Source: a virus. Taken from it: 64,000 bases of DNA. Below, piece after piece: positions 12,594-31,212 of the stretch. The translations under genes and the position numbers were made by a program. Where the stretch lies: the IMG/VR virus record IMGVR_UViG_3300007352_000013, positions 65,436 to 129,435 of that record; one strand, 5' to 3'. Each line of letters begins with the position of its first letter. Position 1 is the stretch's first letter. The notes below the pieces were generated by a model that was not told the origin of the DNA, ran no database searches, and saw only the letters and a program-made list of their open reading frames with translations.

Positions 12594-13450
12594 AAATTAC
12601 TACTTGTAGTCCAAATTCAATAAATATATATAGATCATGTTCATTTAAATATTATTTGAACTATATACTCGGCATTAAGATTCCTTCTGGTAAAGCCGCT
12701 GTGCTAGGAACAATAGTGCATCAAGTTTTTGAATGGATGGCTAGACTCAAAAAAGCTGGTAAAACACATATAGATTACGACTGGTTATTTGAACGCGCTT
12801 GGGAAGAAAATAAACATATAGAATTAAGAAAATTTACTAGTAGGGGTATAAGCGCAGATTTTAAAAAATGCAAAGAATCCATAAAAAAAGTAGTTGAAGA
12901 TAAATATTATAATCCATATAATATGAATATACTCGATATTGAAAAATGGTTTGAATTGGACATGGAAGGTGAAGAATGGTTTACTATAGATAATAAACCA
13001 TTCAAAATACGTGGATTTATTGATGCAATTAATATTATAGATGACAATACCATAGAAATAGTAGACTGGAAAAATGGACAACAAAAAGATCTTTCTAATA
13101 TGGAAGAAATAAATTTTGATAATATATCAAAAAAAATACAACCAAGAATATATCATTTGGCAGCGAGCATTCTTTATCCTCAATATAAGAATATTATTAT
13201 TACATTCTATTATATTAATGGGGATGGACCAATCAGTATAAGTTTATCGGAAGAAGATCTTGTTAATACTTTAACTGGTTTATATACTTTTTTTACTACG
13301 GTTAAAAAAGATAATCTAATAAAAAGAAATAGAAGCTGGCGTTGTAAAATGTGTCCATACAATAAAAATGATCTTTGTACAAGTATATGGTCGGATTTGA
13401 ATACATTCGGAGAACAATTCATTAAGGAAAAGTACGGCAAAAATGAATAA
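12590..13450 (+). CDS. PD-(D/E)XK exonuclease, Cas4/RecB-like
   Basis: CSFKYY, GTIVH, RGFID..IVDWKNG and C-terminal CKMC motifs. Confidence 0.8.
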   Translation: MKITTCSPNSINIYRSCSFKYYLNYILGIKIPSGKAAVLGTIVHQVFEWMARLKKAGKTHIDYDWLFERAWEENKHIELRKFTSRGISADFKKCKESIKKVVEDKYYNPYNMNILDIEKWFELDMEGEEWFTIDNKPFKIRGFIDAINIIDDNTIEIVDWKNGQQKDLSNMEEINFDNISKKIQPRIYHLAASILYPQYKNIIITFYYINGDGPISISLSEEDLVNTLTGLYTFFTTVKKDNLIKRNRSWRCKMCPYNKNDLCTSIWSDLNTFGEQFIKEKYGKNE

Positions 13451-15761
13451 CATTTATGTACCATTGCACTGTCACTCTCATTACAGTTTATTAGATGGTT
13501 TATCTACACCAACAAAGATAGCAGAAAGATGTAAAGAAATAGGATCTCCATGCGCAACATTAACGGATCATGGTGGAATAGCCGGATGGGTAGAACTTCA
13601 AAAATCATGTAAAAAATTTGGTATTAAACCAATATTCGGAAGCGAATTATATCTTTGTGAAAAAGATCCATCAATAAAAAATAAAGAAAATAATAAAAGA
13701 TATCATCTTACTGTCTTAGCAAGAAATCAGAATGGTATAGAAGATTTGATGAAACTTATTAGTGAAAGTAATCGTCCCGATTATTTTTACAGAAAACCCA
13801 GATTAGATCTTAAGAATATATATAATTTCACTAAAAATAGAAACATAATATGTCTTTCTGGCTGTTTAGCTGGTGAACTTTCTGAAAATATATTCTCTGA
13901 TATGAAGCAGGCGTGTATATATGGAGCGGATATAAAAAATATAGAGAGTGTAAGAAAATTATTGAAACCAAATTGGAAAGATATAGCCGAAAAAATAGTA
14001 GATAAATATATAAAAATATTTGGTAAAGAAAATTATTTCATAGAACTTCAGTCGGAAGGTATGATTTCTCAAATAGTAACTGTTGAATGTCTAAGGGAAC
14101 TTGCAAAAGCTTTGAACATACCAACAGTAGCAACTTTAGATAGTCATTATACGTGCAAAGGTGATGCAGACGATCAAAGAATATTATTATATTCCCAAAT
14201 GAGAACAACACAAGAAGAACAAGATAGATTACGTAAAAGTGGCGAAGATTCTATGGCATTTTTCTATCTTGATAATTTTTATATATTCTCATATGATGAA
14301 ATGAAAGAATTTTATGCAGATCATGAAATAGAACAAACATTAATAATATCTGATATGATTAAAACATCGTCATTAGGAAGGCAACCTTGCTTACCTAAAT
14401 ATAATACAGAAGAAAATATTACATCAGACAAACTTATAGAATCATTATGTATAAATGAAGCGAAAGAAAGATTTGCCAATTTTACACAAGATAAAAAGAG
14501 AGTATATTGGGAAAGACTCAAGAAAGAATTGTCTGTAATAGAAGAAGCAAAGTTGGCAGATTACTTCTTGATAGTATATGATGCTTGTAAATTTATAGAC
14601 GCACATAATGCACCAAGAGGTAAGGGCAGAGGGTCTGGCGCTGGAAGCTTGGTCAATTATCTATTAAATATAACGCAGATAGATCCTATAGAATATAATC
14701 TTTATTTCGAAAGATTCTATAACGTATCAAGATCAATCCCACCACATTTTGATGTCGGGCCAATAAAATTTACTCAATGGTTATCAGATAATTATGGCAA
14801 AATAAATAAACAACAAATAGAAGAAGCTAGATGTTATATTATAAACAGAATAAGAGATAATATAAGAAATCATAAACTTAGTGTAAATAATAAATTGTTA
14901 AAAGAAGAAAGAGACTGGATAGACAAAAATAATCCTAAAATGTGGTTGTATATATCATATTGTTCTAAACAATTAGAACCACCAAATCCTAATAATTCAC
15001 ACATAACAGAATTTTATAATTCAAAAATAGAAAAACTGGATGGTAAATATAAAGTTGAAATAAAAATAGATATTAATAAACCTGTGAAAATTAATGATGG
15101 CCATATAAGTCTACCGGATATAGATACTGATATAGGAGTTGAATTCAGAGAAAGGGTTGTTGAATATCTAATTAATAAATGGGGAGAAAATAAAGTTTCT
15201 CAAATGATAACATTTGGAAAATTAATGGGTAAGGCAGCTTTGAAAGAAGTGTTTAGAGCACAACCCGATCTCGTTAAACATCTGATGAAAGTTAAAGCAG
15301 AAAAAGAAGGAAAAGATCCTAATGATATAAATATTACACCATTGGATCTATGTAATGAAATAACGTCACTTATTCCGGACGAAGCAAGTATTATAGATGA
15401 ATTACAACATATGAGAGATGAAACCGACGAAGATTATACCATACTTAATTGGGCTATAGATAATATAGATAAAATGAAAGAATATTACCAATGGTATAAG
15501 CCATTATTCGATACTGCTATACGATTAGAAGGAACTAAAAAGAGTCAATCAAAACATCCTGCTGGACTTGTTATATCCGATGTTCCAATAAATCAATTAG
15601 TTCCAATGGTTTATGAACCTAAGAATAAAACTAGAGTGGTTGGTTTTGAAATGGGCGCAGCAGAGTATATGGGATGCGTTAAGTTTGATTTCTTGGGTGT
15701 TGTAGCCTTAGACAAAATGTGGTACGCACAAAGTTTAATAAATGGCGTTACAAATGGGTAA
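13443..15761 (+). CDS. dnaE: DNA polymerase III alpha, N-terminal half (PHP + palm + thumb)
   Basis: LHCHSHYSLLDG, TDHG, YRKPRLD, GRGSGAGSLV..L.IT.IDP, LPDIDTD, HPAGLVIS and KFDFLG motifs; stops right after the third catalytic Asp. Confidence 0.92.
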   Translation: MNNIYVPLHCHSHYSLLDGLSTPTKIAERCKEIGSPCATLTDHGGIAGWVELQKSCKKFGIKPIFGSELYLCEKDPSIKNKENNKRYHLTVLARNQNGIEDLMKLISESNRPDYFYRKPRLDLKNIYNFTKNRNIICLSGCLAGELSENIFSDMKQACIYGADIKNIESVRKLLKPNWKDIAEKIVDKYIKIFGKENYFIELQSEGMISQIVTVECLRELAKALNIPTVATLDSHYTCKGDADDQRILLYSQMRTTQEEQDRLRKSGEDSMAFFYLDNFYIFSYDEMKEFYADHEIEQTLIISDMIKTSSLGRQPCLPKYNTEENITSDKLIESLCINEAKERFANFTQDKKRVYWERLKKELSVIEEAKLADYFLIVYDACKFIDAHNAPRGKGRGSGAGSLVNYLLNITQIDPIEYNLYFERFYNVSRSIPPHFDVGPIKFTQWLSDNYGKINKQQIEEARCYIINRIRDNIRNHKLSVNNKLLKEERDWIDKNNPKMWLYISYCSKQLEPPNPNNSHITEFYNSKIEKLDGKYKVEIKIDINKPVKINDGHISLPDIDTDIGVEFRERVVEYLINKWGENKVSQMITFGKLMGKAALKEVFRAQPDLVKHLMKVKAEKEGKDPNDINITPLDLCNEITSLIPDEASIIDELQHMRDETDEDYTILNWAIDNIDKMKEYYQWYKPLFDTAIRLEGTKKSQSKHPAGLVISDVPINQLVPMVYEPKNKTRVVGFEMGAAEYMGCVKFDFLGVVALDKMWYAQSLINGVTNG

Positions 15762-16365
15762 AATAATTGATTTAACAGGTAAAATATTCGGCAGATTAAA
15801 AGTTATAAAATTCTTTGGTAAAGATAAACAAAATCATGCTATTTGGACTTGTAAATGTGTATGTGGGAATACAAGGATGATACTTTCTAATAGTTTAAAA
15901 AGTGGCAAAACAAAAAGTTGTGGATGTCTATCTTCGGAAATAGCTTCTAAAAATATGACAAAACACGGATTGAGTTGTATTAAAACATACCATATATGGA
16001 AAGGTATAAAAAATAGATGTAATAATCCAAATAATCCATCTTATTATAATTATGGAGGACGTGGTATCAAGGTTTGTGAAAGATGGATGAAATTTGAAAA
16101 TTTCTTTGAAGACATGGGAGAACCACCAACAAATAGGCACAGTATAGATAGAATAAATAATAATAAAGGTTATTCCAAGTCAAATTGTAGATGGACAACA
16201 AAAGATAAGCAAGTCAGAAATACAAGACACAATTATAATATAAAATATAAGGGAAAAACCAAATGTCTAAAAGATTGGGCGAATGAATTGAATATTCCAT
16301 ATGTGACAATATGGTATAGATTGCGCAAATTTAATTGGACAGTAAAAAGAGCTTTTGTTAAATAA
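15754..16365 (+). CDS. HNH homing endonuclease
   Basis: GKIFGRLKV, CKCVCG, TKSCGC, YGGRGIKVCERW and SIDRINNNKGY motifs; overlaps the dnaE-N stop. Confidence 0.85.
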   Translation: MGKIIDLTGKIFGRLKVIKFFGKDKQNHAIWTCKCVCGNTRMILSNSLKSGKTKSCGCLSSEIASKNMTKHGLSCIKTYHIWKGIKNRCNNPNNPSYYNYGGRGIKVCERWMKFENFFEDMGEPPTNRHSIDRINNNKGYSKSNCRWTTKDKQVRNTRHNYNIKYKGKTKCLKDWANELNIPYVTIWYRLRKFNWTVKRAFVK

Positions 16366-16391
16366 TAGTAAATTTTATAGGTAATTATTAT

Positions 16392-16994
16392 ATGAATAGA
16401 ATGCAACAATTAGTAATGGAATTTCACAAAAAATTCGGACATACTAATAATAATAAACCAACATTAACAAACAAAGAACTTAATAAATTTAGAGAGAATT
16501 TGCTAGACGAAGAAATTCAGGAGCTTAAGGATGCAATAAATGCCGGTGATTTAGTTGAGATTGCCGATGCTTTGGGGGATGCACTATATGTTATATTCGG
16601 CACTTGTTGTTCACATGGTATAGATATAGAACCAATTTTTGAAGAAGTGCATAGATCTAATATGAGCAAAAGTTCTTCTGGAAGCAATTGTATAAAACAA
16701 AAAAAGGGTAAGAATTATTTTAAACCAAATATAAAATTAGTTCTTAATAAACAATTAATGAAGTGTAAAAATTGTAAATCAAATAATCTTATTCCTGATC
16801 ATGCATGTCTATATATTGATGCTGTTGATTTAGATCATCGTCCATATTATTGTTATGACTGTTGTAATAGCAGTATTAAAAGGGCAGGGATAAAATCGCC
16901 AATATATTGTGAACATACTAATCAAATGCCCGCAAATTGTCCGTGCTTAAACGATTGTTATTGCAAAAATCATTCGTGTAAACAAATTGGATAA
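16392..16994 (+). CDS. MazG-like/all-alpha nucleoside triphosphate pyrophosphohydrolase with Cys-rich C-terminal extension
   Basis: EFHKKFG, LLDEEIQEL, EIADALGDALYV and EVHRSNMSK motifs. Confidence 0.8.
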   Translation: MNRMQQLVMEFHKKFGHTNNNKPTLTNKELNKFRENLLDEEIQELKDAINAGDLVEIADALGDALYVIFGTCCSHGIDIEPIFEEVHRSNMSKSSSGSNCIKQKKGKNYFKPNIKLVLNKQLMKCKNCKSNNLIPDHACLYIDAVDLDHRPYYCYDCCNSSIKRAGIKSPIYCEHTNQMPANCPCLNDCYCKNHSCKQIG

Positions 16995-16998
16995 TATA

Positions 16999-17778
16999 AT
17001 GAATCAATTTAATTTTAATTGGAATTGTACTAATAAAGAATTGGTAATTTATGTTCCTAACTTTGGTCGTAAGCATCTACTAATTCCTACATTGAAAAGA
17101 TTTAAAACTATCGTGCCATATACCAAATGGATGTGGCTGGTAGTTAACGATGGTATTGACGAAGATATGTCTGATCTTGATAAGGAATTTAATCTTAAAT
17201 GGTTTACTTTTCAAAGAGAACCAGCCAATGAACGAAATGGATGTATGATTAGAAATATGTGTATAAAGAACTGTATGAGTAAATGGCTTTGTACTAAAGA
17301 CCCGGAAATAATCATAGAAGGCGATATTATATCTAAAATTTTAGATATTAAAGATGATATAGTTTATAGACCAAGAGGAATGATTGAATTGTTTGAACAA
17401 AACACCCAACAAATAATAGATAATCCATTTTTAGATTTAACTGAATTACCAATATTGAGACAGTGGGAAGCTAATGATAAAAGGAATCAGGCTTTCCATG
17501 CTGGTTGTGCTATAAGAACACAAAGACTGAAAGATATGCGAGGATATGACGAGGGATATAGTGCAGGATATGGTTTTGAGGATTGGTCAATGCTTGAAAG
17601 ACTTAAAAAATCAACAAGAGTTATTATAGATAATGATATACAAACTTATCATATCGGTCATCCAATTATAAGAAAGTTCCACAAGACTATAGTAAATAAT
17701 GAATCTATCTATAAAAAAGATTTACAAAATTTAAATATTATAGCCAATAAAAATGTTGAATGGGGTTATGGAGAATAA
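16999..17778 (+). CDS. GT-A (GT2/GT7-like) glycosyltransferase
   Basis: VPNFGR, RNMCIK, KDPE and GYDEGY..GYGFED motifs; paralog of 19727. Confidence 0.75.
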   Translation: MNQFNFNWNCTNKELVIYVPNFGRKHLLIPTLKRFKTIVPYTKWMWLVVNDGIDEDMSDLDKEFNLKWFTFQREPANERNGCMIRNMCIKNCMSKWLCTKDPEIIIEGDIISKILDIKDDIVYRPRGMIELFEQNTQQIIDNPFLDLTELPILRQWEANDKRNQAFHAGCAIRTQRLKDMRGYDEGYSAGYGFEDWSMLERLKKSTRVIIDNDIQTYHIGHPIIRKFHKTIVNNESIYKKDLQNLNIIANKNVEWGYGE

Positions 17779-17784
17779 AAATAA

Positions 17785-18423
17785 ATGCTAAATTTGTCTG
17801 GATTAAAATTTGGAAGATTAATAGCAAAAAATATAGTTGGATTAACAAAAGATAAAAGATGTCTTTGGCTGTGTGTTTGCGATTGCGGCAATACTAAAAT
17901 ATGTACATCTAAAAATTTAAAGGATGGATGCACTAAAAGTTGTGGTTGCTTAAAAAAGGAAACTGATATAAAAAATGGAAAAGCAAATAAAAAACATGGA
18001 TATAAAGGCACTAGAACATATAACATATGGAGAGATATGCTTGATAGATGTAAAAATGAAAAAAATATAAGTTATAAAAACTACGGTGGTAGAGGAATTA
18101 AAGTTTGCGATAGATGGGATATTTCTGAAGGAGGTTCTTTCGAGAATTTTATTAAAGATATGGGTGAAATTCCAAAAGGATTGACTATTGATAGAATTGA
18201 CAACAACGGGAATTATTGTCCAGAAAATTGTAAATTATCTACAAGAAAACAGCAAAGTAGGAATACTAGAAAAAATCATTTAATAACTTTTGGCGGTAAA
18301 ACTCAATGCTTATCTGCTTGGGCAGAAGAATACAACATATGTTTACAAACATTATGGTATAGAATAAAAAGGGGATTATCAATTAAAGATGCTATTAATA
18401 TCCGGAAAGATAATTATGAATAA
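17785..18423 (+). CDS. HNH homing endonuclease
   Basis: LSGLKFGRL, CDCG, TKSCGC, YGGRGIKVC and TIDRIDNNGNY motifs. Confidence 0.85.
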   Translation: MLNLSGLKFGRLIAKNIVGLTKDKRCLWLCVCDCGNTKICTSKNLKDGCTKSCGCLKKETDIKNGKANKKHGYKGTRTYNIWRDMLDRCKNEKNISYKNYGGRGIKVCDRWDISEGGSFENFIKDMGEIPKGLTIDRIDNNGNYCPENCKLSTRKQQSRNTRKNHLITFGGKTQCLSAWAEEYNICLQTLWYRIKRGLSIKDAINIRKDNYE

Positions 18424-19018
18424 AAATATAATAATAGGATTAGGAACGGGACGATGCGGCACCGTTACTTTAGCACATTTGTTAAATAAACAGCCAAATT
18501 TTAGTGTCACGCATGAATTTAATCCTACTTTTTGGGAATTTGATTACGGGTCTTTGATATTCCTTTTGAATAAACTAGAAAAAAGAACGCAGAATAATAT
18601 TGGTGATATAGCCTATTATCATCTTAATTATTGTGAGCATATATTAGATAAAATTAATAATGTTAAATTTCCTATAATGATTAGGAACAAAGAAGATGTT
18701 GTTAAAAGTTACATGAAGTGGACTAACGGACGTAATCATTGGTCAAAAGAAAGATCTAGAAATGAAAAAGAAGACAAATATTGGGATAAAACTTATCCAA
18801 AGTATAATTTACCAAAAATAGAAGCACTTAATAAATATTATGACGATTACTACACAAAGTGCAATGATTTAATAAATAAGTATCCAAATAAATTCAAGTT
18901 ATTTGAAATGCTTGAAACATTTAATACTGAATCTGGACAAAATAATTTATTAGATTTTATTGGTATAAATGAGAATGACAGGATATTAGATATTGGAATT
19001 AGGAAAAATGCTTCTTGA
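18416..19018 (+). CDS. PAPS-dependent sulfotransferase
   Basis: GLGTGRCGT 5'-PSB loop and IRNKEDVVKSY 3'-PB motif. Confidence 0.7.
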   Translation: MNKNIIIGLGTGRCGTVTLAHLLNKQPNFSVTHEFNPTFWEFDYGSLIFLLNKLEKRTQNNIGDIAYYHLNYCEHILDKINNVKFPIMIRNKEDVVKSYMKWTNGRNHWSKERSRNEKEDKYWDKTYPKYNLPKIEALNKYYDDYYTKCNDLINKYPNKFKLFEMLETFNTESGQNNLLDFIGINENDRILDIGIRKNAS

Positions 19019-19730
19019 TAAAGTAACATTATTAATAAAAACATTTGAAAGACCAGACTGTTTAAAAAAATTGCTTAATAGCATATATAAATATTATAAA
19101 AATATTCCAATAATAGTAGTAAACGATGGCGTTCCAATAAATGACATTCCAAATGTATTTCAAATCAATGTTGACTTCGATATGGGCGCTTCATATTGTA
19201 GAAATCTGGGATTATCAATGGTTAATACACCCTATGTTGTCACGCTCGATGACGATTTTATATTTAATGAAAGAACCAAATTAGAGACATGGTTAGATAT
19301 ACTTGAAAATACTTCTATTGATTTGATTTCTGGCGACGTAACAAATACGAGATATGAAGCTTGTTTTAAATTAGAAAATAAAATTTTACAATTTGTTAGA
19401 AAAAATAAAGGTATAGAATCTGGTTATCCGTTATATGATATAGTTCTTCAGTTTTGGATGGCAAGAACAGAAAAAATAAGATCTTTTGGTGGATGGTGCA
19501 ATGAATTTAAAACAATAGATCATATGCCCTTTTTTATAAATGCTTTTAACAAAATTAAGATAGCGTATTGTAATAGCGTATACGTAGACCATAAACAAGA
19601 AAGAACAAAAGAATATAATAGATTTAGACAAGATAGATCTCAAATGTATTTTGATTTGATTTTAGATAAATTTAATTTAAATAAAATAATAGGATATTGG
19701 GGCAATGTTGTTTCGGAAAAAAGAAAATGA
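19008..19730 (+). CDS. GT2 glycosyltransferase
   Basis: IKTFERP, VNDG, GASYCRN and TLDDD motifs. Confidence 0.8.
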   Translation: MLLDKVTLLIKTFERPDCLKKLLNSIYKYYKNIPIIVVNDGVPINDIPNVFQINVDFDMGASYCRNLGLSMVNTPYVVTLDDDFIFNERTKLETWLDILENTSIDLISGDVTNTRYEACFKLENKILQFVRKNKGIESGYPLYDIVLQFWMARTEKIRSFGGWCNEFKTIDHMPFFINAFNKIKIAYCNSVYVDHKQERTKEYNRFRQDRSQMYFDLILDKFNLNKIIGYWGNVVSEKRK

Positions 19731-20542
19731 TATCATTTAAAAATTTCGATTGGAAACAAACAAATAAAGAACTTGTATTATTAATCCCAAATTTTGGTCG
19801 TGGAAAATATGTAAGACAAACATTAAATAATCTTATAGAAACTTCTATTTCAAAAGACAGATGGGTAATTTTGCTTATTAATGATTCTATACATGAAGAT
19901 TTTAGCGATTTAGAAAATGAAAATATTTTATATTTTACTGTAGAAAGAAATAGTAAACATGAAAGGGGTGATGCTTTCATGAGAAATATTTGTATTAAAT
20001 ATTCACAATCAAAATTGCTGGCACAAAAAGACCCTGAAATTTTTTATACTAATGATTTTATAAAAGGATGTTTTAACAATCAGGGTGTATTGTATAGATG
20101 TGGTGGTATGGCACATTTAGCCAAAGAACAAGACACACATAATTATCTTGATAATAATATTGATGTTAATAAATTGATTAAAAATTCTGATAAATATCCA
20201 ATAACAGAAAGATTTGTTTATTGGCATTTCGGTCATTGCGCACCAATAGAATGTTTTAGAAAATTAAATGGATACGATGAAGATTTTAAATATTATGGAT
20301 ATGTAGATACGAATATGTGGGATAGACTAATGAAGTCCGGATTAAAACAACGTATTGATCCAACCTGTAACCCCATACACTTATGGCATCCAAAACCCCA
20401 TTTTAAAACTCACGAAAGAGACATAAAGAGATACGAAGCTATGGGTAAGCTTTATAATAACAAAATAAATCAAGATATAGTTGCTAATATTAATGTCGAA
20501 TGGGGCGAGGGCGATACCTTATATTTACCGGAGATAATATAA
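19727..20542 (+). CDS. GT-A (GT2/GT7-like) glycosyltransferase
   Basis: IPNFGRG, RNICIK, KDPE and GYDEDF..YGYVD motifs; paralog of 16999. Confidence 0.75.
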   Translation: MISFKNFDWKQTNKELVLLIPNFGRGKYVRQTLNNLIETSISKDRWVILLINDSIHEDFSDLENENILYFTVERNSKHERGDAFMRNICIKYSQSKLLAQKDPEIFYTNDFIKGCFNNQGVLYRCGGMAHLAKEQDTHNYLDNNIDVNKLIKNSDKYPITERFVYWHFGHCAPIECFRKLNGYDEDFKYYGYVDTNMWDRLMKSGLKQRIDPTCNPIHLWHPKPHFKTHERDIKRYEAMGKLYNNKINQDIVANINVEWGEGDTLYLPEII

Positions 20543-21276
20543 TGAATAATGTAATAATACTTGGAGCCGGTAGAAGCGGAACAAGTGCAATAGCCGGTTC
20601 TTTTCTTGGTGACTTTAATCGTGGAGGCACTTTGCATTTACCGAATGATGCAAATCCAAGGGGCTTTTTTGAATCAAACAATGTTAATAGAATAAACGAC
20701 GATTTACTCTGGATGTGTAAAGCAGTTAGAACAACAAGGGGTTTAAAACAAGGATGGTTGACGGCACTTGATAAAAGCCATTTACTTTGTGAAACAACAA
20801 AAAACATAGAAGATAGAATAGAAAATACGATAGAAAACAAACCCGTATTATTAAAAGATCCAAGATTTTCTTACACTCTTCCTGTATGGTTAAGATATTT
20901 ATCAAATTTGAAGATTGTGTGCGTATTCAGAAATCCTCAACAATTTCTATCAAGTTTATTATATCATTGTAAAACACAACAATATCTTAAAGAAATAGTT
21001 GTTGATCCAGAATTTTTCCAAGAAGTTTGGATTTCTATGTACAAATATATTTTAAAGTATTACATTAGATTAAATATTTTATTTATAAATTATTCAGAAA
21101 TATTATATGGAGATGGGCTTAAAAAGTTATCGGACTTTACCGGATACAAAACGAATTGCAATTTTCCAGAAAAAACTCTACAAAGATCGAACAATAATCA
21201 ACAAGTAGCGTATAATTTATTAGAAGTTTACGAAGAACTTTGTAATCTTGCTAATTGTCCAGAAGTTTTGAGATAA
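20542..21276 (+). CDS. PAPS-dependent sulfotransferase
   Basis: ILGAGRSGTS, NPRGFFE, LKDPR and VFRNP motifs. Confidence 0.75.
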   Translation: MNNVIILGAGRSGTSAIAGSFLGDFNRGGTLHLPNDANPRGFFESNNVNRINDDLLWMCKAVRTTRGLKQGWLTALDKSHLLCETTKNIEDRIENTIENKPVLLKDPRFSYTLPVWLRYLSNLKIVCVFRNPQQFLSSLLYHCKTQQYLKEIVVDPEFFQEVWISMYKYILKYYIRLNILFINYSEILYGDGLKKLSDFTGYKTNCNFPEKTLQRSNNNQQVAYNLLEVYEELCNLANCPEVLR

Positions 21277-22596: not shown

Positions 22597-23583
22597 ATGG
22601 GTAAGAAAAGGGCATTAATATTCGGTATAACTGGTCAAGACGGTTCTTATTTAGCTGAACATTTGCTTGAATTGAATTATGACATATTTGGAACAGTGAG
22701 GCGGAATTCTGTTCCGGAAAGCCAAGGTACTAGAATAGACCATCTTTCTGGTTTAATAACAACATCATATGCAGATTTAAGCGACAATTCATCTATAGAA
22801 AGAATTATTAAAGATTGTCATCCAGATGAAATATATAATTTAGCAGCACAATCACATGTAAGAATAGGTGCCGATATTCCATTATATACAGTACAGACCA
22901 ACGCTCTTGGAGTGGCTAACATTTTAGAAGCTTATAGAAAATTCGCACCAAATGCCAAGTTCTATCAGGCATCTTCTAGTGAAATGTTCGGTAACAATGT
23001 TGATAAAGATGGATTCCAAAGAGAAACAACGCCTATGGAACCAGTTTCAGTTTATGGATGCACCAAATTATTCGCATTCAATCTCGTTAAATATTATCGT
23101 CGAGCATTTAATCTATTCGCTTGCAATGGCATTCTGTTCAATCACGAATCGCCACGTAGAGGAAGTAATTTTGTTACATCTAAAGTAGTTAAAACGGCAG
23201 TAGAAATTTCATTGGGTATTAGTGATAAATTAATTCTTGGAAATCTTGATAGCTATAGGGATTGGGGTCATAGCTATGATTACGTCAGAGCTATGAAATT
23301 GATTCTTGATGAAAATGGACCAAATGATTTTGTTGTTGCAACAGGAGAAACGCATTCTGTTAGAGAAATGTGCGAATATGTTTTTAATAGATTAGATTTA
23401 GATTATAGAGATTATATTGAAATAAATCCGGCATTTTATAGACCAGAAGAATTAAAATATTTAAAGGGTGATAGCACAAGAGCCAGAAATATTCTTGGAT
23501 GGAAACCAAAATTTACTTTCCAAACTATGTTGGATGATATGATCTATCATTGGCAAAAAGAATTAGTTACCAAAAGGAATTAA
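22597..23583 (+). CDS. gmd: GDP-mannose 4,6-dehydratase
   Basis: GITGQDGSYLAE, NLAAQSHV, YQASSSEMFG, YGCTK, NHESPRRG and RDWGH motifs. Confidence 0.95.
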   Translation: MGKKRALIFGITGQDGSYLAEHLLELNYDIFGTVRRNSVPESQGTRIDHLSGLITTSYADLSDNSSIERIIKDCHPDEIYNLAAQSHVRIGADIPLYTVQTNALGVANILEAYRKFAPNAKFYQASSSEMFGNNVDKDGFQRETTPMEPVSVYGCTKLFAFNLVKYYRRAFNLFACNGILFNHESPRRGSNFVTSKVVKTAVEISLGISDKLILGNLDSYRDWGHSYDYVRAMKLILDENGPNDFVVATGETHSVREMCEYVFNRLDLDYRDYIEINPAFYRPEELKYLKGDSTRARNILGWKPKFTFQTMLDDMIYHWQKELVTKRN

Positions 23584-23584
23584 T

Positions 23585-23875
23585 ATGTCTAAAATTAGAG
23601 TATATGATCGTGAAATAAATAATATAGTTAATTACCTTAATAAGCTTTTAGAATTAGATCGTGCAGCTATTAATAAATTATTTTTAGATAATTATGTTGT
23701 AGTTAATAAAAATATAATGAATCATAAATATGCCCAAGTAAGAATGGATGGTAAATTTGGAATCCTCGGTTTAATAAATGGAATTATTATTCCGCACAAT
23801 AGAGTTATTTATATGGATTTGGACGAAAAAGAAAATATAATAAAATTTAGATCGAGTAAATACAAAAATGATTAA
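23585..23875 (+). CDS. Hypothetical protein
   Basis: Packed ORF; GILGLING motif. Confidence 0.55.
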   Translation: MSKIRVYDREINNIVNYLNKLLELDRAAINKLFLDNYVVVNKNIMNHKYAQVRMDGKFGILGLINGIIIPHNRVIYMDLDEKENIIKFRSSKYKND

Positions 23876-23901
23876 TAGAATTATCACAAAAGGAAAATAT
23901 A

Positions 23902-24276
23902 ATGGCTGGGAAAGGCGATAGATATAGACCAGTTAATAAAGAAGTTTATGATAAAAATTTTGAATGTGTATTTGGTATTAAAAAATTAAATATTATGTCC
24001 AATGAAGATCGTGAAGAATTAATTTATGACAGAGATGGAAAAATTGGTAGAAATATATCTTCGGACGGATATGACAGTAGAAACATTCATGAAGCGAGCC
24101 AAATTGCTTCGGGCAAAAAGAGACGCCGTAAAGCAAAAACATTCTGGATCGGCCCCGGCTACAGAGGCGAATATAGTTGTCCACACGGAGTAGGACACGG
24201 AAATCATATTCATGGATGCTGTCAAGAACGATGTTGCACAAGAGAAGACTTTCCATTGAGGAATAAAAATGGCTAG
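23902..24276 (+). CDS. Hypothetical protein (GKGDRYRP N-terminus, CPHGVGH C-terminus)
   Basis: ORF with AGGA SD; His/Cys-rich end. Confidence 0.5.
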   Translation: MAGKGDRYRPVNKEVYDKNFECVFGIKKLNIMSNEDREELIYDRDGKIGRNISSDGYDSRNIHEASQIASGKKRRRKAKTFWIGPGYRGEYSCPHGVGHGNHIHGCCQERCCTREDFPLRNKNG

Positions 24277-24682
24277 ATATATTTATTCTAAGGTTGATCC
24301 AACTAAACTTTTACATATTATACATGACATAACAGAAACAAAAGAACAAAGAGAAGATCTTGTTCCACCCAATAATTTTCTTCAAATAGCAACTATACCA
24401 TTAAAAGCAAATCAAACATTTAAGGCTCACAAACATATATGGAATAACTTTAATGGTCCCAAAATCGCGCAAGAATCGTGGATAGTTATTCGCGGAAGAG
24501 TTGAAGCTACTTTATACGACATAGATAATACTATATTGGAAAAAGTTATACTACACGAGGGTCATTTATCTATTACATTAGAAGGCGGTCATAATTATAT
24601 GGCTTCACCTGAAGGTGCATTTGTTTATGAAGTAAAAACAGGGCCGTATCAAGGAATAGAGTTGGATAAGGAATTTATTTAA
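24269..24682 (+). CDS. WbuC-like cupin-fold metalloprotein
   Basis: HKH, QESW, GGHNY and EVKTGPY motifs. Confidence 0.7.
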   Translation: MARYIYSKVDPTKLLHIIHDITETKEQREDLVPPNNFLQIATIPLKANQTFKAHKHIWNNFNGPKIAQESWIVIRGRVEATLYDIDNTILEKVILHEGHLSITLEGGHNYMASPEGAFVYEVKTGPYQGIELDKEFI

Positions 24683-25062
24683 TGAAAATTTATATAGCAA
24701 CTAAAAAACAAGATGCAGCCGTAGCATTAAGAAGAAAATTAAAAGAAATTTTTCAAGATAAAGTTAGTTTTGTTAGTTCATGGATAGATCAAGAAAGCTA
24801 TGGAAATACTCCTATATGCCAAAAAATGGCTATTGCCGAAAGATGTGAAAACGATGTTAAACAATGCGATTTATTAATAAACATAGCTGATGAAGTAAAT
24901 ACGCACGGAGGAAAGCACGTAGAACTAGGAATAGCTCTGGCTTTAGGGAAAAAAATAATGGTTTTGGGTAGAAAAGAGAATATCTTCCATCATCATAAAT
25001 CTGTTATATTTTTCGAAACAGATGATAAATTGATTGATAAAATGAAAGAAATGATTCACTAA
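24682..25062 (+). CDS. Nucleoside 2-deoxyribosyltransferase / dNMP N-glycosidase-like protein
   Basis: KIYIA, DVKQCD and GGKHVELGIALALGK motifs. Confidence 0.7.
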   Translation: MKIYIATKKQDAAVALRRKLKEIFQDKVSFVSSWIDQESYGNTPICQKMAIAERCENDVKQCDLLINIADEVNTHGGKHVELGIALALGKKIMVLGRKENIFHHHKSVIFFETDDKLIDKMKEMIH

Positions 25063-25091
25063 ATGGCTTAAGATATCTGCGAGAAAAAGAA

Positions 25092-25631
25092 ATGCTAAAA
25101 TTACATTTAGGCGCTGGAAAACGAGATTTTGGAGAAGGATGGTTCAATGTTGATATAGCCGATTTTCCTCATATTCATCACAAAGATATAACTAAACTTC
25201 CATTCGAAGACAATTCTGTCGATCTTATCTATTCTGCACATACCATAGAATACTTTGATAGACAAGAGATTATCCCAATTTTACAAGAATGGAAACGTAC
25301 TCTCAAACCAAATGGAATACTTCGTCTAGCTGTACCAGATTTTGAAACTATGTGTATGCTTTATTTTTCACAAATGTATCCAATAGAAAATTTCTTGGGT
25401 CCATTATACGGAAAAATGGATGTAGGTGATAAAAAAATATATCATAAAACATGTTATGATTTCAAAAGTTTATCGACATTATTAATGTCTATTGGAATGA
25501 AAAATATAAGAAGATATAAGTGGAGAAATACTGAACACGCACAATTTGACGATCATTCTCAAGCATATCTTCCGCATATGGATAAAGTAAATGGGGTGTG
25601 TTTAAGTCTAAATGTTGAATGTGAAAAATAA
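25092..25631 (+). CDS. Class I SAM methyltransferase (Methyltransf_11-like)
   Basis: LHLGAG, LPFEDNSVDLIYSAH and LKPNGILRLAVPD motifs. Confidence 0.8.
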   Translation: MLKLHLGAGKRDFGEGWFNVDIADFPHIHHKDITKLPFEDNSVDLIYSAHTIEYFDRQEIIPILQEWKRTLKPNGILRLAVPDFETMCMLYFSQMYPIENFLGPLYGKMDVGDKKIYHKTCYDFKSLSTLLMSIGMKNIRRYKWRNTEHAQFDDHSQAYLPHMDKVNGVCLSLNVECEK

Positions 25632-26260
25632 TGGAAATAATTCAGAGATTAAAAGACATAATAAAAAAGCCAAATCCACTAATTATAGAAATAGGATGCT
25701 GGAATGGTAGAGACACAGAATTATTTTTGAATATATTCCCTGAATGTAAGATATTTGGATTTGAACCAGACCCAAGGAACATAGAAAAAATAAAAAAAAG
25801 AATAAATAATCGAAGATTCGAATTAATAGAAGAAGCTATAAGTGATAAAGATGGGATTATAACTTTTTATGAAAGTCATGGAATAGCTAATGGGGAAAGT
25901 GATTGGAGCGCTTCTAGCTCTTTGAATAAACCCAAAAAACATTTAGATATAAATCCCCATATTACTTTTGGAAATGGAGTTAAAGTTTTTGGAAGAAAAT
26001 TAGATAATTTCATAGAAAAAAAACAAATAAAAAATATAGACTTAATTTGGGCCGACGTTAATGGTGCAGAATATAAGATGATAAATGGTGCTTTAGAAAC
26101 CATGAAAATAACAAAATTTCTATATACCGAATTCAGCGAAAAGGAAATATACGAAGAAAGCATCACTAAAGAAAAAATTAAAAGCATGTTACCTAATTTC
26201 AAAGAAATATTTACCCACAAAAATAACGTATTATTGGAGAATAAATTATTATCTACATAA
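25631..26260 (+). CDS. FkbM-family methyltransferase
   Basis: EIGCWNG, FEPDPRN and DLIWADVNGAE motifs. Confidence 0.85.
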   Translation: MEIIQRLKDIIKKPNPLIIEIGCWNGRDTELFLNIFPECKIFGFEPDPRNIEKIKKRINNRRFELIEEAISDKDGIITFYESHGIANGESDWSASSSLNKPKKHLDINPHITFGNGVKVFGRKLDNFIEKKQIKNIDLIWADVNGAEYKMINGALETMKITKFLYTEFSEKEIYEESITKEKIKSMLPNFKEIFTHKNNVLLENKLLST

Positions 26261-27195
26261 CAACACAACATGAACGGGGTGTCAAAAATCGTTACAATAG
26301 TGATGGCGCTATTGGTCATCATTTCTTAAATTGGTTAAAGGGTCCGGTTTTGGCGCAAAGATATGGTTTAAGATATGTATATAATAATATAGTTCCAGAT
26401 TATATGGGTACGCAATGGAACGAATTCTTGGGTTTAGATAAAAGAGTTCCTTCCAAACTTAATGAATTAGGAGTTCCGGTTTACTCCATTAGTGACATAA
26501 AAAATTGTCAAATAGTAGATATCCCACAAATAGAATGGAACGCATCATATACCCATCCAATAATTATTGAATATATTAATAAATACAAATATGCATCAAT
26601 AAATGAAGATGAAAATATTTTATTAAGAACATCACCCGGACGTGGATTTTATATAGATTGGCAATATTGGCTTAATAATGATTTAAGAGAAAAATATGAT
26701 TTTGCTAGACAAGAAAATCCTGTTGAGCTACATAATGCTGATGATTTTTATATGGTTTGTATTCATTGGAGAAGGGGAGATATAAATAATAAAGATCAGC
26801 CGGAAAGATGGATCACTAATGAACGATATTATAAATTAATAAATAATATTAAAAATACATTAGATAATTTATATATAAGATATAAGATACAAATAATTTC
26901 AGAAGGTGAACAAAAAGATTTTGGATGCGTAAATGATATAGACAATATAGAATTCGTATTAAATGAAAACCCGATAATATCATTCCATAGAATGATTATA
27001 TCCGATATTCTTATTAATGCAAAATCTGCATTTTCTGTTTGTGCAGCATATTTTCATAAGGGTCCAAAGCTTTGTATTCCATTTAGTATATATTGGCAGC
27101 AAACTCATCCAGATAATGATAACTTTAAAGATCTTATATGGATAAATGAGAGTATGGATTTTCATATTAAAACATTGGATATATTGTTAGGATGA
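26248..27195 (+). CDS. GT11 (alpha-1,2-fucosyltransferase)-like glycosyltransferase, non-ATG start
   Basis: IHWRRGD motif and SAFS. The frame stays open upstream of the track start 26350 and carries GAIGHHFLNW, matching GIGHQFLNW of the paralog. Probable start at ATT 26248. Confidence 0.7.
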   Translation: MIYITTQHERGVKNRYNSDGAIGHHFLNWLKGPVLAQRYGLRYVYNNIVPDYMGTQWNEFLGLDKRVPSKLNELGVPVYSISDIKNCQIVDIPQIEWNASYTHPIIIEYINKYKYASINEDENILLRTSPGRGFYIDWQYWLNNDLREKYDFARQENPVELHNADDFYMVCIHWRRGDINNKDQPERWITNERYYKLINNIKNTLDNLYIRYKIQIISEGEQKDFGCVNDIDNIEFVLNENPIISFHRMIISDILINAKSAFSVCAAYFHKGPKLCIPFSIYWQQTHPDNDNFKDLIWINESMDFHIKTLDILLG

Positions 27196-27773
27196 AAATA
27201 TTAGTGGGCTGTGAATTTTCTGGAGTCGTTCGTAGTGCTTTTGCAGCAAAGGGTCACGATGCTTGGTCTTGTGATTTGCTAGATACAGAAGTTAATGGTA
27301 ATCATATAAGGGGTGATCTTTTAAAGATACTAGATAACGGTTGGGATTTGGCTATATTCCATCCACCATGCACATATTTGTGTAGTAGTGGTTTGCATTG
27401 GAACAAAAGAAAACCAGAAAGACAAAAATTAACAGAAGAAGCTTTAGAATTTGTTAGAAAATTATTGAATGCGCCTATAGAAAAAATAGCGTTAGAAAAC
27501 CCAATAGGTTGTATTTCGACAAGAATAAGAAAGCCGGATCAAATTATACAACCGTTTCAATTCGGCCATTCGGAGAGTAAATCAACTTGTTTATGGTTAA
27601 AAAATCTACCATTATTAAAACCCACTAAAATATTGGATACACCAGAATGTGGATATTGGAACAACCAAACTCCTTCTAGACAAAATAAGTTAGGACCATC
27701 TGATAATAGGTGGAAATTAAGATCAATAACCTATCAGGGTTTTGCCGACGCTATGGCGAATCAATGGGGATAA
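27192..27773 (+). CDS. Short phage-type DNA cytosine-C5 methyltransferase
   Basis: LVGCEFSG motif I, HPPCTYL catalytic PC, ENPIG and K.TCLWL motifs. Confidence 0.8.
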   Translation: MKILVGCEFSGVVRSAFAAKGHDAWSCDLLDTEVNGNHIRGDLLKILDNGWDLAIFHPPCTYLCSSGLHWNKRKPERQKLTEEALEFVRKLLNAPIEKIALENPIGCISTRIRKPDQIIQPFQFGHSESKSTCLWLKNLPLLKPTKILDTPECGYWNNQTPSRQNKLGPSDNRWKLRSITYQGFADAMANQWG

Positions 27774-27774
27774 A

Positions 27775-28743
27775 ATGAATAGATATATAACTGTTAAACC
27801 ACATGGTGGATTTGCGGGAATTGGTCATCAATTTCTGAATTGGTTAGTTCCTTACGTGCTTGCGCAAAGATATGGTCTTAAATTCGTTCATCAAAATTTC
27901 GTTGGAGAAACAGACGGTACTTTTGCTCCAAGGGGTTCTAACGCTAATCAAATAACTAGACCAGTAAAAGAATGGAATAATTTTCTAAATTTAGGAGAAG
28001 GTGAAATAACATTACAAGATTTAAATATACATAGCTTAACAGAAATAAATCTACCGTATATAGATCAAGAAAAAGCAACTTGGAATAATATAGAATTTTC
28101 GTCTTTATTAGAAAATGATCTTCGTACAATTGGCAAATTTTGTGGAACATTGTATAGAGTATCGGAAGATATAGATGGACAATTTGTACACATAGATTGG
28201 GATTTTTATAAAAGTAATAATCTAAAGAAAAAATATAATAACTCACAACAGGTAAAGAATTTCAAATGTTATTTTGATGAAGGATGTACAAATGTAGCCA
28301 TACATATCAGAAGAGGTGACGTTACAGAGAATACACCGTACAGAAGATGGCAAAATCTAGGTTATTATCTTGGAATAATAGATAATTTATCAAATATAAA
28401 AGAACTAAAGAATGTAGTTTTTCATATCTATTCTTGGGATATGTCTAAGGAAGAAAGAGATGTATTGTTTTTGCATAGTATTTTCGGGAAAAGAGAGATA
28501 GAATTACATATAGACGAAGATGTTTTTTCAACATTCTACCATATGACAAAAGCAGATATATTTGTGTCTGGCCAAGGTGCATTTTCTTTAATGGCTAATT
28601 ACTTGACCGATGCAGTGAAATTAACAACACCATTTTATATGCATTGGAAAGATTTTCCAGAAGATATTCATGATATAATAGAAGTTAGACCAGATAGTTC
28701 TTTTAATCAAAAAAAACTTTTAAAAGCATTGGGAAATAAATGA
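27775..28743 (+). CDS. GT11-like glycosyltransferase
   Basis: AGIGHQF, AIHIRRGD and GAFS motifs; paralog of 26248. Confidence 0.75.
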   Translation: MNRYITVKPHGGFAGIGHQFLNWLVPYVLAQRYGLKFVHQNFVGETDGTFAPRGSNANQITRPVKEWNNFLNLGEGEITLQDLNIHSLTEINLPYIDQEKATWNNIEFSSLLENDLRTIGKFCGTLYRVSEDIDGQFVHIDWDFYKSNNLKKKYNNSQQVKNFKCYFDEGCTNVAIHIRRGDVTENTPYRRWQNLGYYLGIIDNLSNIKELKNVVFHIYSWDMSKEERDVLFLHSIFGKREIELHIDEDVFSTFYHMTKADIFVSGQGAFSLMANYLTDAVKLTTPFYMHWKDFPEDIHDIIEVRPDSSFNQKKLLKALGNK

Positions 28744-29312
28744 AAAAATTAGACTGGAGAGAGGTTGAGGGTTGGTTTTCTGAAGCTGACGCCGCTTTCG
28801 TATCAGATATATTGAAAGATACTCGCAACGGAACCGTAGTAGAAATAGGATTATTTTATGGTCGAGCTAGTGCTGTTATGATGCCACTGGCCCTTGATAA
28901 TGGAAATCAGTATTATGCAATCGATAATTTTTATGGTGGTGTAGACGAAACAACACCAGCTTCAAAAATTCAAAGATCAGACGGCGCTAAAGTTATGGCA
29001 AAATTTATATCTAATATGAAGGCTTTAGGAATAAATCGTTCCGATTACGCTTTATATAAATCCAATAGTATTGAAGCTTCAGTTTATTTACCCGACGAAT
29101 CTGTAGATTTTTGTTTTATAGATTCGGATCATGCTTATGAATCGGTGAAACTAGATTTAGAAACTTGGTGGAAAAAAATCAAAATTAATGGTATATTAGG
29201 GGGCCATGATTACAACAATCCGGATGTTAGAAGAGCTTTGGACGAATTCGTTAAAGACAAAAATGTGACCGTACAAACCGGGGGAAATTGTTGGAATCTT
29301 ATAAAAAAATAA
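28740..29312 (+). CDS. Class I SAM methyltransferase (Methyltransf_24-like, probable sugar O-methyltransferase)
   Basis: VEIGLFYGRAS, FIDSDHAYE and GILGGHDY motifs. Confidence 0.8.
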   Translation: MKKLDWREVEGWFSEADAAFVSDILKDTRNGTVVEIGLFYGRASAVMMPLALDNGNQYYAIDNFYGGVDETTPASKIQRSDGAKVMAKFISNMKALGINRSDYALYKSNSIEASVYLPDESVDFCFIDSDHAYESVKLDLETWWKKIKINGILGGHDYNNPDVRRALDEFVKDKNVTVQTGGNCWNLIKK

Positions 29313-29473
29313 ATAGACTATTCGATGATGCTCCTAGTAATAAAGAGGTTTTAGAAATAAAAAGAAGGAATAAAAACGGAGAATCTGTCGCTAAAATTAA
29401 AAAAGATATGAATATACATCCAAAATTTATAACAGATATAATAAAGAAGTATAAATGGAAAAAACTAAAATAA
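29288..29473 (+). pseudogene. Remnant of the C-terminal HTH domain of an HNH-type endonuclease
   Basis: EVLEIK..G.S...I...MNI....ITDI....W pattern; no nuclease core and no good ATG. Confidence 0.45.
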
Positions 29474-31212
29474 AATTTGCTAATTGTGACTGTATCGTTG
29501 AACCGGGAAAATTTGATGTAAATAAAATTCCAACAAATTGCCCAGCTACTTTTGCGCTCATTTCTTCTGGTTTTACAACTGGAATTTTTCAACTCGAAAG
29601 TAGATTGGGAATGGATTGGGCTAAGAAGGTACAGCCACAGAATATAGAAGAGATTGCAGCTTTATCTGCATTATTAAGGCCCGGCGCTTTAGAGAGTGGA
29701 CAATCCGAGGAATATGTAGATATAAAATTTGGTAGAAAACAACCTTCGTATTTACATCCGGCATTAAAAGATATTTTGTCAAGTACATATAATTCTATGA
29801 TTTATCAAGAACAGGCATTGGCCATAGCGAAAGAAATAGCCGGATTTACTATGGAAGAAGCAGATAATTTAAGAAAAGCTGTTGGAAAAAAGATTCCAGA
29901 ATTGATGGCTTCTTTAAAACAAAAATTCATAGACGGAGCATTAAATAATAAGGTAACTAAAAATGTTGCAGAACAAATATTCGATTGGATTGAGAAAAGT
30001 CAGCGATATTCGTTTAATAAATCTCATGCAATTGCTTATGGAATATTAAGTTATAATACGGCTTGGATGAAATGTCATTTCCCATTAGAATTTTTTACAA
30101 GCTATTTAACGTATTCGGATTATAAAGCTGATACGATGGATGAAATTTATAGATTGGTTCAGGATGCTCGTTTATTTGGAATAGAAGTTTTGCAACCGGA
30201 TATAAAAGAATGTAATGTAAAATTTAAGATGACAGATGATAAAATAAAATTTGGATTATCTAATATAAAGGGGGTTGGTCCATCTGCAATAGAAAAAATT
30301 ATAAAGAACGGAAAAGAATCATTATCAACTTGGCAAGGATTTTTAAAATCTTTACCAGCATTACATAGAAATGTTGGAATAGCACTTATAAAATCTGGAT
30401 CTTGTGATTGTTATAATAAATCAAGATCACAAATGATCAAAGAACTAGAATGTATATTTGGCACTCAGATTAAAGATGAAAATGGCAAAACAAAAGAAAT
30501 CAGAGGTTTAACAGAAAGAGAAAGAAAATGGTTTTTTCATAAACTTGGTGATGAAAAGTCTGTTATAGATGTATTAAATGAAATGACAAATAAAGTAAAT
30601 GAGATGTCAACTAGATCATTAGGCGGAATGAATAAGGGTGAAATAATAGATTTCACGAAAGAATATACCGGATTAAAAGACGAAGATTTAATTGGAAAGA
30701 CAAAATTCGATGTTATAAATATACTTAAAAAATATGGATACGAAACAAATAGAGATAATAAACCTCTTTCAAATATAAAAAGAATATCTATTATAAAAGA
30801 AAAAATAAAAGAACTACAAGAAATATCAGAAGATACTAATTTGGGAAAAGCTACTGCTGAAAAATACTTTTTAGGAATCTCTTTATCATGCTCGCCAGCA
30901 GATGACGCAGATGACGAATGTGCAACTCATACATGTCTAGATTTGGCAAAAGCTTTAAATGGAGAAAATTTTTCAATTTGTGCTGTAATAGATAATGTAA
31001 AACATACCAAAACTAAAAGAGGTAAAAATATTGGGGCGGCAATGTGTTTCTTAACCATTTCTGATTCTACCTACAGTATAGATCATGCGGTGGTTTTTCC
31101 CGATTCATATGAAAAATTAAGCAAATACTGTAAAGATGGTATGATTTGTTTGCTACAGGGTTATAAAAAGAATGGATCTATAATTATTGAAAATATAAGA
31201 AAATTAATTTAA
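29455..31212 (+). CDS. dnaE: DNA polymerase III alpha, C-terminal half (fingers, HhH, OB)
   Basis: TGIFQLES, SALLRPGALESG, MIYQEQ, ADNLRKAVGKK, YSFNKSHA, FGLSNIKGVG and EKYFLG motifs. Confidence 0.92.
   Translation: MEKTKIKFANCDCIVEPGKFDVNKIPTNCPATFALISSGFTTGIFQLESRLGMDWAKKVQPQNIEEIAALSALLRPGALESGQSEEYVDIKFGRKQPSYLHPALKDILSSTYNSMIYQEQALAIAKEIAGFTMEEADNLRKAVGKKIPELMASLKQKFIDGALNNKVTKNVAEQIFDWIEKSQRYSFNKSHAIAYGILSYNTAWMKCHFPLEFFTSYLTYSDYKADTMDEIYRLVQDARLFGIEVLQPDIKECNVKFKMTDDKIKFGLSNIKGVGPSAIEKIIKNGKESLSTWQGFLKSLPALHRNVGIALIKSGSCDCYNKSRSQMIKELECIFGTQIKDENGKTKEIRGLTERERKWFFHKLGDEKSVIDVLNEMTNKVNEMSTRSLGGMNKGEIIDFTKEYTGLKDEDLIGKTKFDVINILKKYGYETNRDNKPLSNIKRISIIKEKIKELQEISEDTNLGKATAEKYFLGISLSCSPADDADDECATHTCLDLAKALNGENFSICAVIDNVKHTKTKRGKNIGAAMCFLTISDSTYSIDHAVVFPDSYEKLSKYCKDGMICLLQGYKKNGSIIIENIRKLI

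Follow-up and report, generated by a model that had tools for sequence, protein, structure and literature searches.

How does a phage come to encode its replicative DNA polymerase as two genes separated by 13.7 kb, and can the two products act as one enzyme? The question is raised by a 64,000-nucleotide stretch of viral DNA (IMG/VR record IMGVR_UViG_3300007352_000013, positions 65,436 to 129,435), hereafter the window, in which dnaE, the gene for the alpha subunit of DNA polymerase III (Pol III alpha), occurs as an N-terminal half (N-half) and a C-terminal half (C-half). The window forms the 3′ half of a linear contig of 129,435 bp with ~30% G+C. Textbooks present Pol III alpha as a bacterial replicase of one chain and, to our knowledge, the only natural split forms described so far depend on inteins. 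No description of a two-piece, intein-free dnaE split came up in searches of full-text literature that includes few subscription journals. An initial annotation of the window had proposed an intein-free, two-polypeptide polymerase of the C family. All of our computational tests agree with this proposal, and we consider it probable that the two genes specify a non-covalent, two-subunit replicase whose halves, we infer, physically assemble and are active as a polymerase.

In the arrangement that we propose, the phage would replicate with a DnaE-type Pol III alpha made of two polypeptides that come together non-covalently to build one active site. From the N-half would come the thumb, the PHP domain for proofreading, and the palm with its three catalytic aspartates; from the C-half, the fingers that bind deoxynucleoside triphosphate (dNTP) and template, the HhH region that binds duplex and clamp, and the OB fold. 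The gene would be cut within a linker on the protein surface, where palm meets fingers (~E. coli residue 577), and this linker would tolerate either state, open or closed. After its opening, the gene would have offered an intergenic landing site, taken by a DEDD exonuclease in many relatives and by a sugar cassette and HNH genes here.

Anatomy of the two dnaE halves

The N-half (772 amino acids; 13443-15761, + strand) contains the PHP, palm, and thumb domains (Pfam PHP, E 4e-38; DNA_pol3_alpha, E 2e-64), and the C-half (585 amino acids; 29455-31212, + strand) contains the fingers, the HhH/beta-binding region, and the OB fold (Pfam DNA_pol3_finger, E 2e-47; HHH_6, E 9e-16; weak OB). The co-oriented halves have start and stop codons of their own, and 13,693 bp (15762-29454) separate them. 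These open reading frames (ORFs) and Pfam matches bear out the termini and the domain assignment of the initial annotation. When aligned to Taq Pol III alpha, the N-half covers residues 8-628 and the C-half residues 642-961. AlphaFold2 (AF2) models built from family alignments had a pLDDT of 93.4 and a pTM of 0.89 for the N-half, and 94.0 and 0.87 for the C-half; each half is thus predicted to be a complete, confident fold by itself. The N-half model (residues 1-772) aligns to E. coli alpha 2-578 (2HNH: Z 38.0, rmsd 3.8, 562 aligned), and the C-half model aligns to E. coli alpha 576-910 over its residues 1-362 (2HNH, Z 18.5) and to 577-1074 over its residues 2-585 (5FKU, Z 22.3). This mapping onto residues 2-578 and 576-1074 indicates that the halves abut at about residue 577, the palm/fingers boundary. 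As judged from these models and from the Taq alignment, the halves appear complementary, with nothing missing and nothing duplicated at the break, just as had been claimed. The junction was placed by motif-anchored and structure-based mapping; the view given by MAFFT --addfragments is distorted by the inteins of two relatives, G003 and G008. Here, G000 denotes the phage of the window, and G001-G004, G006, G008, G009, L036, L037, L041, and L044 denote its relatives. The G000 N-half ends ~17 residues past the motif of the third catalytic Asp (K-F-D-F-L-G), which makes its tail among the shortest of a variable and often acidic set that extends 17-38 residues past this motif. The C-half stops where the tau-binding domain of the E. 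coli enzyme would begin.

The catalytic aspartates of the E. coli Pol III alpha palm are D401, D403, and D555. The corresponding residues of the phage enzyme, D559 and D561 (P-D-I-D-T-D) and D749 (K-F-D-F-L-G), align to the Taq motifs and are invariant in 62 N-halves. All nine PHP metal ligands are present; across the same 62 N-halves, H235 is invariant and H9, H11, D18, H43, E68, H88, C141, and D233 are at least 90% conserved. Retention of the PHP domain with its nine ligands makes it the likely proofreader. In the C-half, the fingers motifs FQLES, RPG, YQEQ, LRKAxGKK, and KSHA are invariant in 81 sequences. A comparison of G000 with G001 gave a dN of 0.16 for the N-half and 0.14 for the C-half with dS saturated, so that dN alone is given for the N-half, and a dN/dS of ~0.05 for the C-half. 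Judged from sequence conservation, both halves appear to be under strongly purifying selection as a polymerase. Of the features by which a C-family DnaE is recognized, the catalytic Asp residues, the PHP ligands, and the fingers, HhH, and OB regions are present, and the single polypeptide is not.

The N-half also contains an insertion of ~120 residues in the palm (residues 432-550; 14736-15092, + strand), at which the Taq alignment jumps from query residue 430 to 551. The insertion directly precedes the catalytic P-D-I-D-T-D motif and is confidently modelled as a helical bundle with a beta-hairpin. It is clade-specific, being present in G000-G004 and absent from the N-halves of G006-G009, and several of its Trp and Asn residues are near-invariant.

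One N-half and one C-half are found in the 129-kb contig of G000, and one of each is found in G002, G003, and G009. The initial annotation had allowed for an intact dnaE elsewhere in the genome; neither such a gene nor PolA, PolB, or any other polymerase was found in the 129-kb contig. Within this contig, which is ~77% complete by CheckV (~40 kb of the genome being missing), the two halves are the only detectable DNA polymerase of the phage. It could be argued that the two proteins have no joint polymerase role, one being for example a PHP nuclease and the other a DNA- or clamp-binding factor, and that replication is left to host Pol III or to a polymerase encoded in the unsequenced ~23%. The incompleteness of the viral record agrees with such an explanation, as does the failure to find a phage beta clamp, a clamp loader, or a DEDD/DnaQ exonuclease (no Pfam RNase_T match) in the 129 kb. 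Similarly, a profile of the exonucleases that lie between the halves in G006, G008, G009, and L037 had no match in the 64-kb window. We nevertheless regard this explanation as improbable, since the three catalytic aspartates and the dNTP-binding motifs of the fingers are invariant family-wide, the halves always co-occur in the replication module between primase/helicase and SSB, and the one-piece sisters within the clade are full-length DnaEs of the usual kind. Two observations do weigh against the two-subunit replicase that we favor: a second polymerase could lie in the missing part of the genome, and no conserved inter-subunit docking element was identified, the N-half tails running from ~17 to 38 residues.

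The break and its possible joining

Inteins are frequent in the DnaE family at other sites, and the C-half of G000 starts with a short Cys-containing beta-hairpin. It is therefore reasonable to ask whether a split intein, cryptic or degenerate, joins the halves post-translationally, or whether a dead one only clasps them. No Hint/intein domain was detected in either half (Pfam, E<=0.01). As a positive control, the same search recovered inteins in relatives (P0123, P0127, and the C-halves of G003 and G008, as well as P0030, whose intein lies in PHP), showing that intein detection works in this family. Structure alignment leaves ~6 residues unaligned at the end of the N-half and <=~18 at the start of the C-half, which is far too short for intein halves. 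In addition, the N-half tail has no Cys or Ser nucleophile at the junction, the C-half start has no H-N ahead of a +1 Cys, and those C-halves that are devoid of the hairpin (28 of 91) are cut at the same place. Joining or clasping by an intein is accordingly very unlikely, and the initial annotation was right to give each half separate start and stop codons and to see no intein motifs at the junctions. The inteins found elsewhere in the family form a pattern of their own. Within the set P0122-P0271, about 50 of 136 stand-alone C-halves have large insertions, at three recurrent sites (query ~80, ~144, and ~190). All insertions tested proved to be inteins that contain HNH or LAGLIDADG domains, with two such insertions in some proteins. 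Intein-bearing C-halves include those of G003 (L030:411-3122, - strand) and G008 (L034:5966-8119), and the intein of the N-half P0030 lies in PHP.

Rejoining could also be envisioned at the level of nucleic acid: the RNA might be spliced or trans-spliced, or the 13.7-kb insert might be excised during development, in the style of a skin element. The halves are co-oriented with no convincing + strand terminator between them, as either process would allow; promoter and terminator scans of the window, it should be noted, gave fewer matches than in shuffled sequence. In contrast, no group I or group II intron or other Rfam family was found in the 64-kb window, and no recombinase or integrase is present among the 21 genes of the gap. 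The junctions have no word longer than 9 nt in common, which is not beyond chance (mean of controls, 8.9). Moreover, the halves have start and stop codons of their own and their ends are non-homologous, the 21 genes of the insert are ordinary ones, conserved and subject to selection, and gaps as short as 389 bp in relatives still show a stop and a new start. Taken together, these observations leave rejoining of the gene or its transcript with hardly any likelihood, and a pair of separately translated subunits is the reading that we retain.

The hairpin itself belongs to an N-terminal extension of the C-half (residues 1-29; 29455-29541, + strand), with C11-x-C13 in the hairpin and C29 at the start of the fingers. 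Its strands are residues 6-7 and 14-15, and its pLDDT in the model of the isolated C-half is 79-92, suggesting a cap that packs against the C-half itself. A hairpin of the form F-x-C-x-C-x-(F/V) heads most stand-alone C-halves, and the third Cys replaces the Asp that others have just ahead of a P-x-T-W helix. Among 91 scoreable stand-alone C-halves, which are related and do not represent independent events, the C-x-C pair and the third Cys co-vary (59 with both, 28 with neither, and 4 mixed). None of the contiguous relatives has the C-x-C hairpin, and most have no Cys at the third position. The hairpin probably caps or stabilizes the exposed end of the C-half. A bolder idea is that the two-piece state is functional in itself and not a scar that is tolerated. 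The Cys-x-Cys...Cys hairpin would then be a metal-dependent clasp or cap that arose to dock or stabilize the open end of the fingers. With the C-half encoded 13.7 kb beyond the N-half, after the sugar/DNA-modification cassette, the replicase would be completed only once the modification enzymes had been made, and repeated fission and fusion of the gene at one site would reflect selection on the timing of assembly as well as on the tolerance of insertions. We consider this idea doubtful.

Family, cargo, and genomic setting

The N-half was used to search 5.8 billion proteins. The form that tops this search is an N-half-only protein of 745-810 amino acids (PHP and core only), which occurs in more than 110 clusters at >=50% identity, on contigs of up to ~180 kb from marine and marine-sediment samples. 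When the best 150 representatives of the C-half (at 50% identity) were analyzed, 136 were stand-alone proteins with no N-half homology, and 132 of these 136 begin at the same break. All 11 relatives whose locus was examined have two separate, co-oriented halves within the same module, and between them lie 0.39-18.2 kb of differing cargo. No deposited phage was closer than ~38% identity to either half. The split is ancient and family-wide, and not peculiar to the phage of the window. These data also bear on an assembly chimera or sequencing artefact at a junction, which comes to mind because the sequence is a single metagenomic contig. Independent assemblies of relatives sampled elsewhere (G001 at 77-80% identity, G002, and G003) show the same architecture and collinear cargo, and hundreds of clusters from JGI, ENA, NCBI, and Logan are split as well; an artefact is thus exceedingly improbable.

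Sister lineages with good support nevertheless have the gene in one piece. A tree of C-half regions, built after removal of inteins, places contiguous DnaEs in among the split forms, and two sister pairs, P0204/P0173 (support 1.0) and P0228/P0184 (support 0.998), each unite a split with a fused form. One pair was compared in its genomic context: L041, where the order is dnaE-N, a 135-residue gene, and dnaE-C, versus L042 and L043, where a single dnaE encodes 1,396 amino acids with an intein elsewhere in the protein. L042 and L043 are two independent assemblies, and their downstream glycosyltransferase genes are the same as in L041. In the fused form, a linker of ~17 residues stands exactly at the point of the stop, intervening gene, and start of the split form, and the flanks are 69% and 55% identical. 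Split and contiguous sisters that differ at one linker indicate that the junction is a permissive linker, and as the tree is read here, the palm/fingers junction appears to have been opened or closed more than once. The 1,396-residue proteins were also considered as fusions of N-half, exonuclease, and C-half; this was rejected, as they are contiguous DnaEs containing an intein. L041 and L042/L043 constitute a ready natural pair for gauging the cost of the split.

The cargo at the break varies widely among relatives. The shortest gaps are those of L041 (389 bp, one 135-residue gene), L036 (635 bp, one unknown gene), G009 (786 bp, a DEDD exonuclease and a 67-residue ORF), and G006 (864 bp, a DEDD exonuclease). 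Those of G008 (3.9 kb; exonuclease and further small ORFs) and L037 (4.1 kb; UDG, exonuclease, and a SIS-domain protein) are intermediate. Larger gaps hold sugar genes. In G004 (8.5 kb) and L044 (9.7 kb) these are unrelated to the cassette of G000, and in G002 (11.8 kb), G001 (13.2 kb), and G003 (18.2 kb) the cassette is of the G000 type, accompanied in G003 by several (about nine) homing-endonuclease-like genes. The DEDD exonuclease is common in short-gap relatives and absent from G000, which is an extreme case of gap expansion. That the same break holds different cargo, from 0.39 to 18.2 kb, in eleven relatives, and that the cargo of G004 and L044 is unrelated to that of G000, supports the earlier suggestion that the break is an insertion hotspot.

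In G000, the gap contains 21 co-oriented ORFs. The first is a free-standing HNH homing endonuclease (15742-16365, + strand; phrog_374, E 5e-74), whose probable start at 15754 overlaps the stop codon of dnaE-N. The remaining cargo (16392-29312, + strand) comprises MazG, sugar-modification, methyltransferase, and unknown genes, along with a second HNH gene (17785-18423, + strand) that is a phrog_374 paralog of the first. A third paralog in the window (57432-58052, - strand) lies outside the gap. By predicted function, the gap holds a MazG/PRA-PH-like pyrophosphohydrolase, four glycosyltransferases, two sulfotransferase-like genes, a DegT/DnrJ aminotransferase, a GDP-mannose 4,6-dehydratase, four methyltransferases (one DNA-MTase-like), a nucleoside 2-deoxyribosyltransferase-like gene, and five unknowns. 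The initial annotation had counted about 20 unrelated genes in 13,693 bp; the length and approximate number are right, but the genes are not a random set, forming instead one coherent sugar-modification cassette with mobile endonucleases. The cassette is collinear in G000-G003, with identities like those of dnaE itself, and G004 shares none of it. The HNH gene at the break has no counterpart there in G001, G002, or G004, and HNH genes come and go between relatives. Its absence from these three indicates a recent arrival that was neither ancestral nor the cause of the split. In short, the cassette is vertically inherited and the HNH genes at the break arrived recently. Loci L030/L031 of G003 contain more phrog_374-type HNH copies and several HNH_3/NUMOD4-like genes in and around the dnaE gap, and these extra homing-endonuclease-like genes account for its 18-kb spacing.

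Between the last cargo gene and the C-half lies a spacer of 142 nt (29313-29454, + strand). A 61-codon frame with a TTG start (29288-29473, + strand) runs through the spacer into the start of the C-half. Its weak match to phrog_4538 (E 4e-4) covers the helix-turn-helix tail at the C-terminal end of that phage protein family, and the frame may be what is left of a homing endonuclease. A conserved, Cys-rich, Zn-ribbon-like ORF of 66-68 amino acids is found directly upstream of the C-half in G002 (L029:2219-2419, - strand) and G003 (L030:3153-3359, - strand), and is absent from G000 and G001. Neither these small ORFs nor that of G009 had a counterpart in the 64-kb window.

The order of the replication module in G000 is SbcD-like nuclease, RecA/UvsX, DnaB, primase, dNMP kinase, PD-(D/E)XK nuclease, dnaE-N, gap, dnaE-C, SSB, and glycosyltransferases. 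Across the relatives examined, the order RecA, DnaB, primase, PD-(D/E)XK nuclease, dnaE-N, gap, dnaE-C, SSB, and glycosyltransferase cluster is conserved. The PD-(D/E)XK nuclease gene (12590-13450, + strand; Pfam PDDEXK_1, E 1e-21; phrog_69) is the conserved upstream neighbor of dnaE-N, whose start its end overlaps by 8 nt, and has the same position in L036, L037, and L044. Its product, a PD-(D/E)XK nuclease, was considered as the missing exonuclease and rejected as unrelated. The SSB gene (31258-31728, + strand) is the conserved downstream neighbor of dnaE-C, and it is followed by a family-wide glycosyltransferase cluster (31737-35619); both the SSB order and the cluster are kept in L036, L037, L041, and L042. 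Embedded in the module are genes for the dNMP kinase (11823-12593), a MazG-like protein (16392-16994), a nucleoside-deoxyribosyltransferase-like protein (24682-25062), and a DNA-MTase-like protein (27192-27773). Because such nucleotide and DNA-MTase-like genes accompany a conserved glycosyltransferase cluster after SSB, the sugar genes possibly modify phage DNA, which could be their target instead of a surface glycan. Downstream, a structural module (38467-63928, - strand) includes a 1,586-residue tape-measure protein and therefore marks the phage as long-tailed. Of eight large proteins tested beside the tape-measure gene, seven had no PHROG match, indicating that the virion lineage is poorly sampled. 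The replicon that hosts the split dnaE is an uncultured, long-tailed phage of ~170 kb.

Comparison with known systems

A very large clade of uncultured phages thus appears to run DnaE as two proteins cut at the palm/fingers hinge, with one-piece sisters at hand. This offers polymerase biochemistry a system for the closing of the fingers on the palm and for the contacts that hold the domains together, and it points to split sites for engineering C-family polymerases. It also suggests how a broken essential gene can become a stable "safe harbour" that gathers cargo such as an exonuclease, sugar pathways, and homing endonucleases. On a practical note, annotation pipelines that expect a DnaE of ~1,150 amino acids will mislabel the halves as fragments or pseudogenes.

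In comparison with single-chain DnaE (Taq 2HPI/3E0D, E. coli 2HNH/5FKU, and M. tuberculosis 5LEW/7PU7), the phage enzyme has the same domain set and order (PHP, palm, thumb, fingers, HhH, OB), the same catalytic triad, PHP ligands, and fingers motifs, and structural Z scores of 38-42 for the N-half and 22-24 for the C-half. It differs in being two polypeptides, in its ~120-residue palm insertion and Cys hairpin, and in having no tau-binding C-terminal domain. The contiguous DnaE relatives closest to the phage halves are ~38-42% identical.

Broken DnaE is known from cyanobacteria, whose split-intein pieces, like those of the "fractured genes" of marine phage-like sequences, bear intein halves with all of the splicing residues and yield one covalent chain (Dassa et al., 2009, PMC2677866). 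The fractured genes resemble the phage dnaE in being two pieces with a free-standing endonuclease between them in a phage-like marine context (PMC2677866). In contrast, the phage dnaE has no intein halves and its break point differs (PMC2677866), and the absence of intein halves places it outside the split-intein/fractured-gene class. In T4-like group 2.2 jumbo phages, two genes far from each other encode a Pol III alpha module in the form of two stand-alone proteins, which are predicted to reconstitute the enzyme (Iyer et al., 2021, PMC7824862). The phage dnaE is similar in its two stand-alone proteins of Pol III alpha type. However, the jumbo-phage module consists of the core nucleotidyltransferase and a template-binding subdomain, has no PHP, and stands beside a family B replicase (PMC7824862), whereas the phage dnaE has the full architecture and no PolB or PolA was found with it in the 129-kb contig. 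With PHP present and PolB absent from the record, it is not a minimal module of this type.

The nearest functional parallels come from phage enzymes fragmented by endonucleases. The split ribonucleotide reductase of phage Aeh1 (NrdA-a/NrdA-b, with mobE) assembles non-covalently, and its novel tails are essential (PMC3045599). Likewise, gp43A and gp43B of phage 25 are reported to co-purify and to be active (PMC2988022, citing Petrov et al., 2010). NrdA-a/b of Aeh1 and gp43A/B of phages 25 and 44RR share with the phage dnaE an essential replication enzyme in two ORFs with their own starts and stops and no intein or intron, non-homologous tails at the broken ends, and a free-standing endonuclease at the break (in G000). 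They hold one endonuclease gene or a short untranslated spacer between the pieces. The phage dnaE differs from them in belonging to the C family, in the age of its split, which is ancient and found in hundreds of lineages, in an HNH gene that is recent and not the cause, and in a gap of 13.7 kb with 21 genes. Keeping these differences in mind, the analogy suggests that the split dnaE would work as these fragmented enzymes do, its two products reassembling without splicing.

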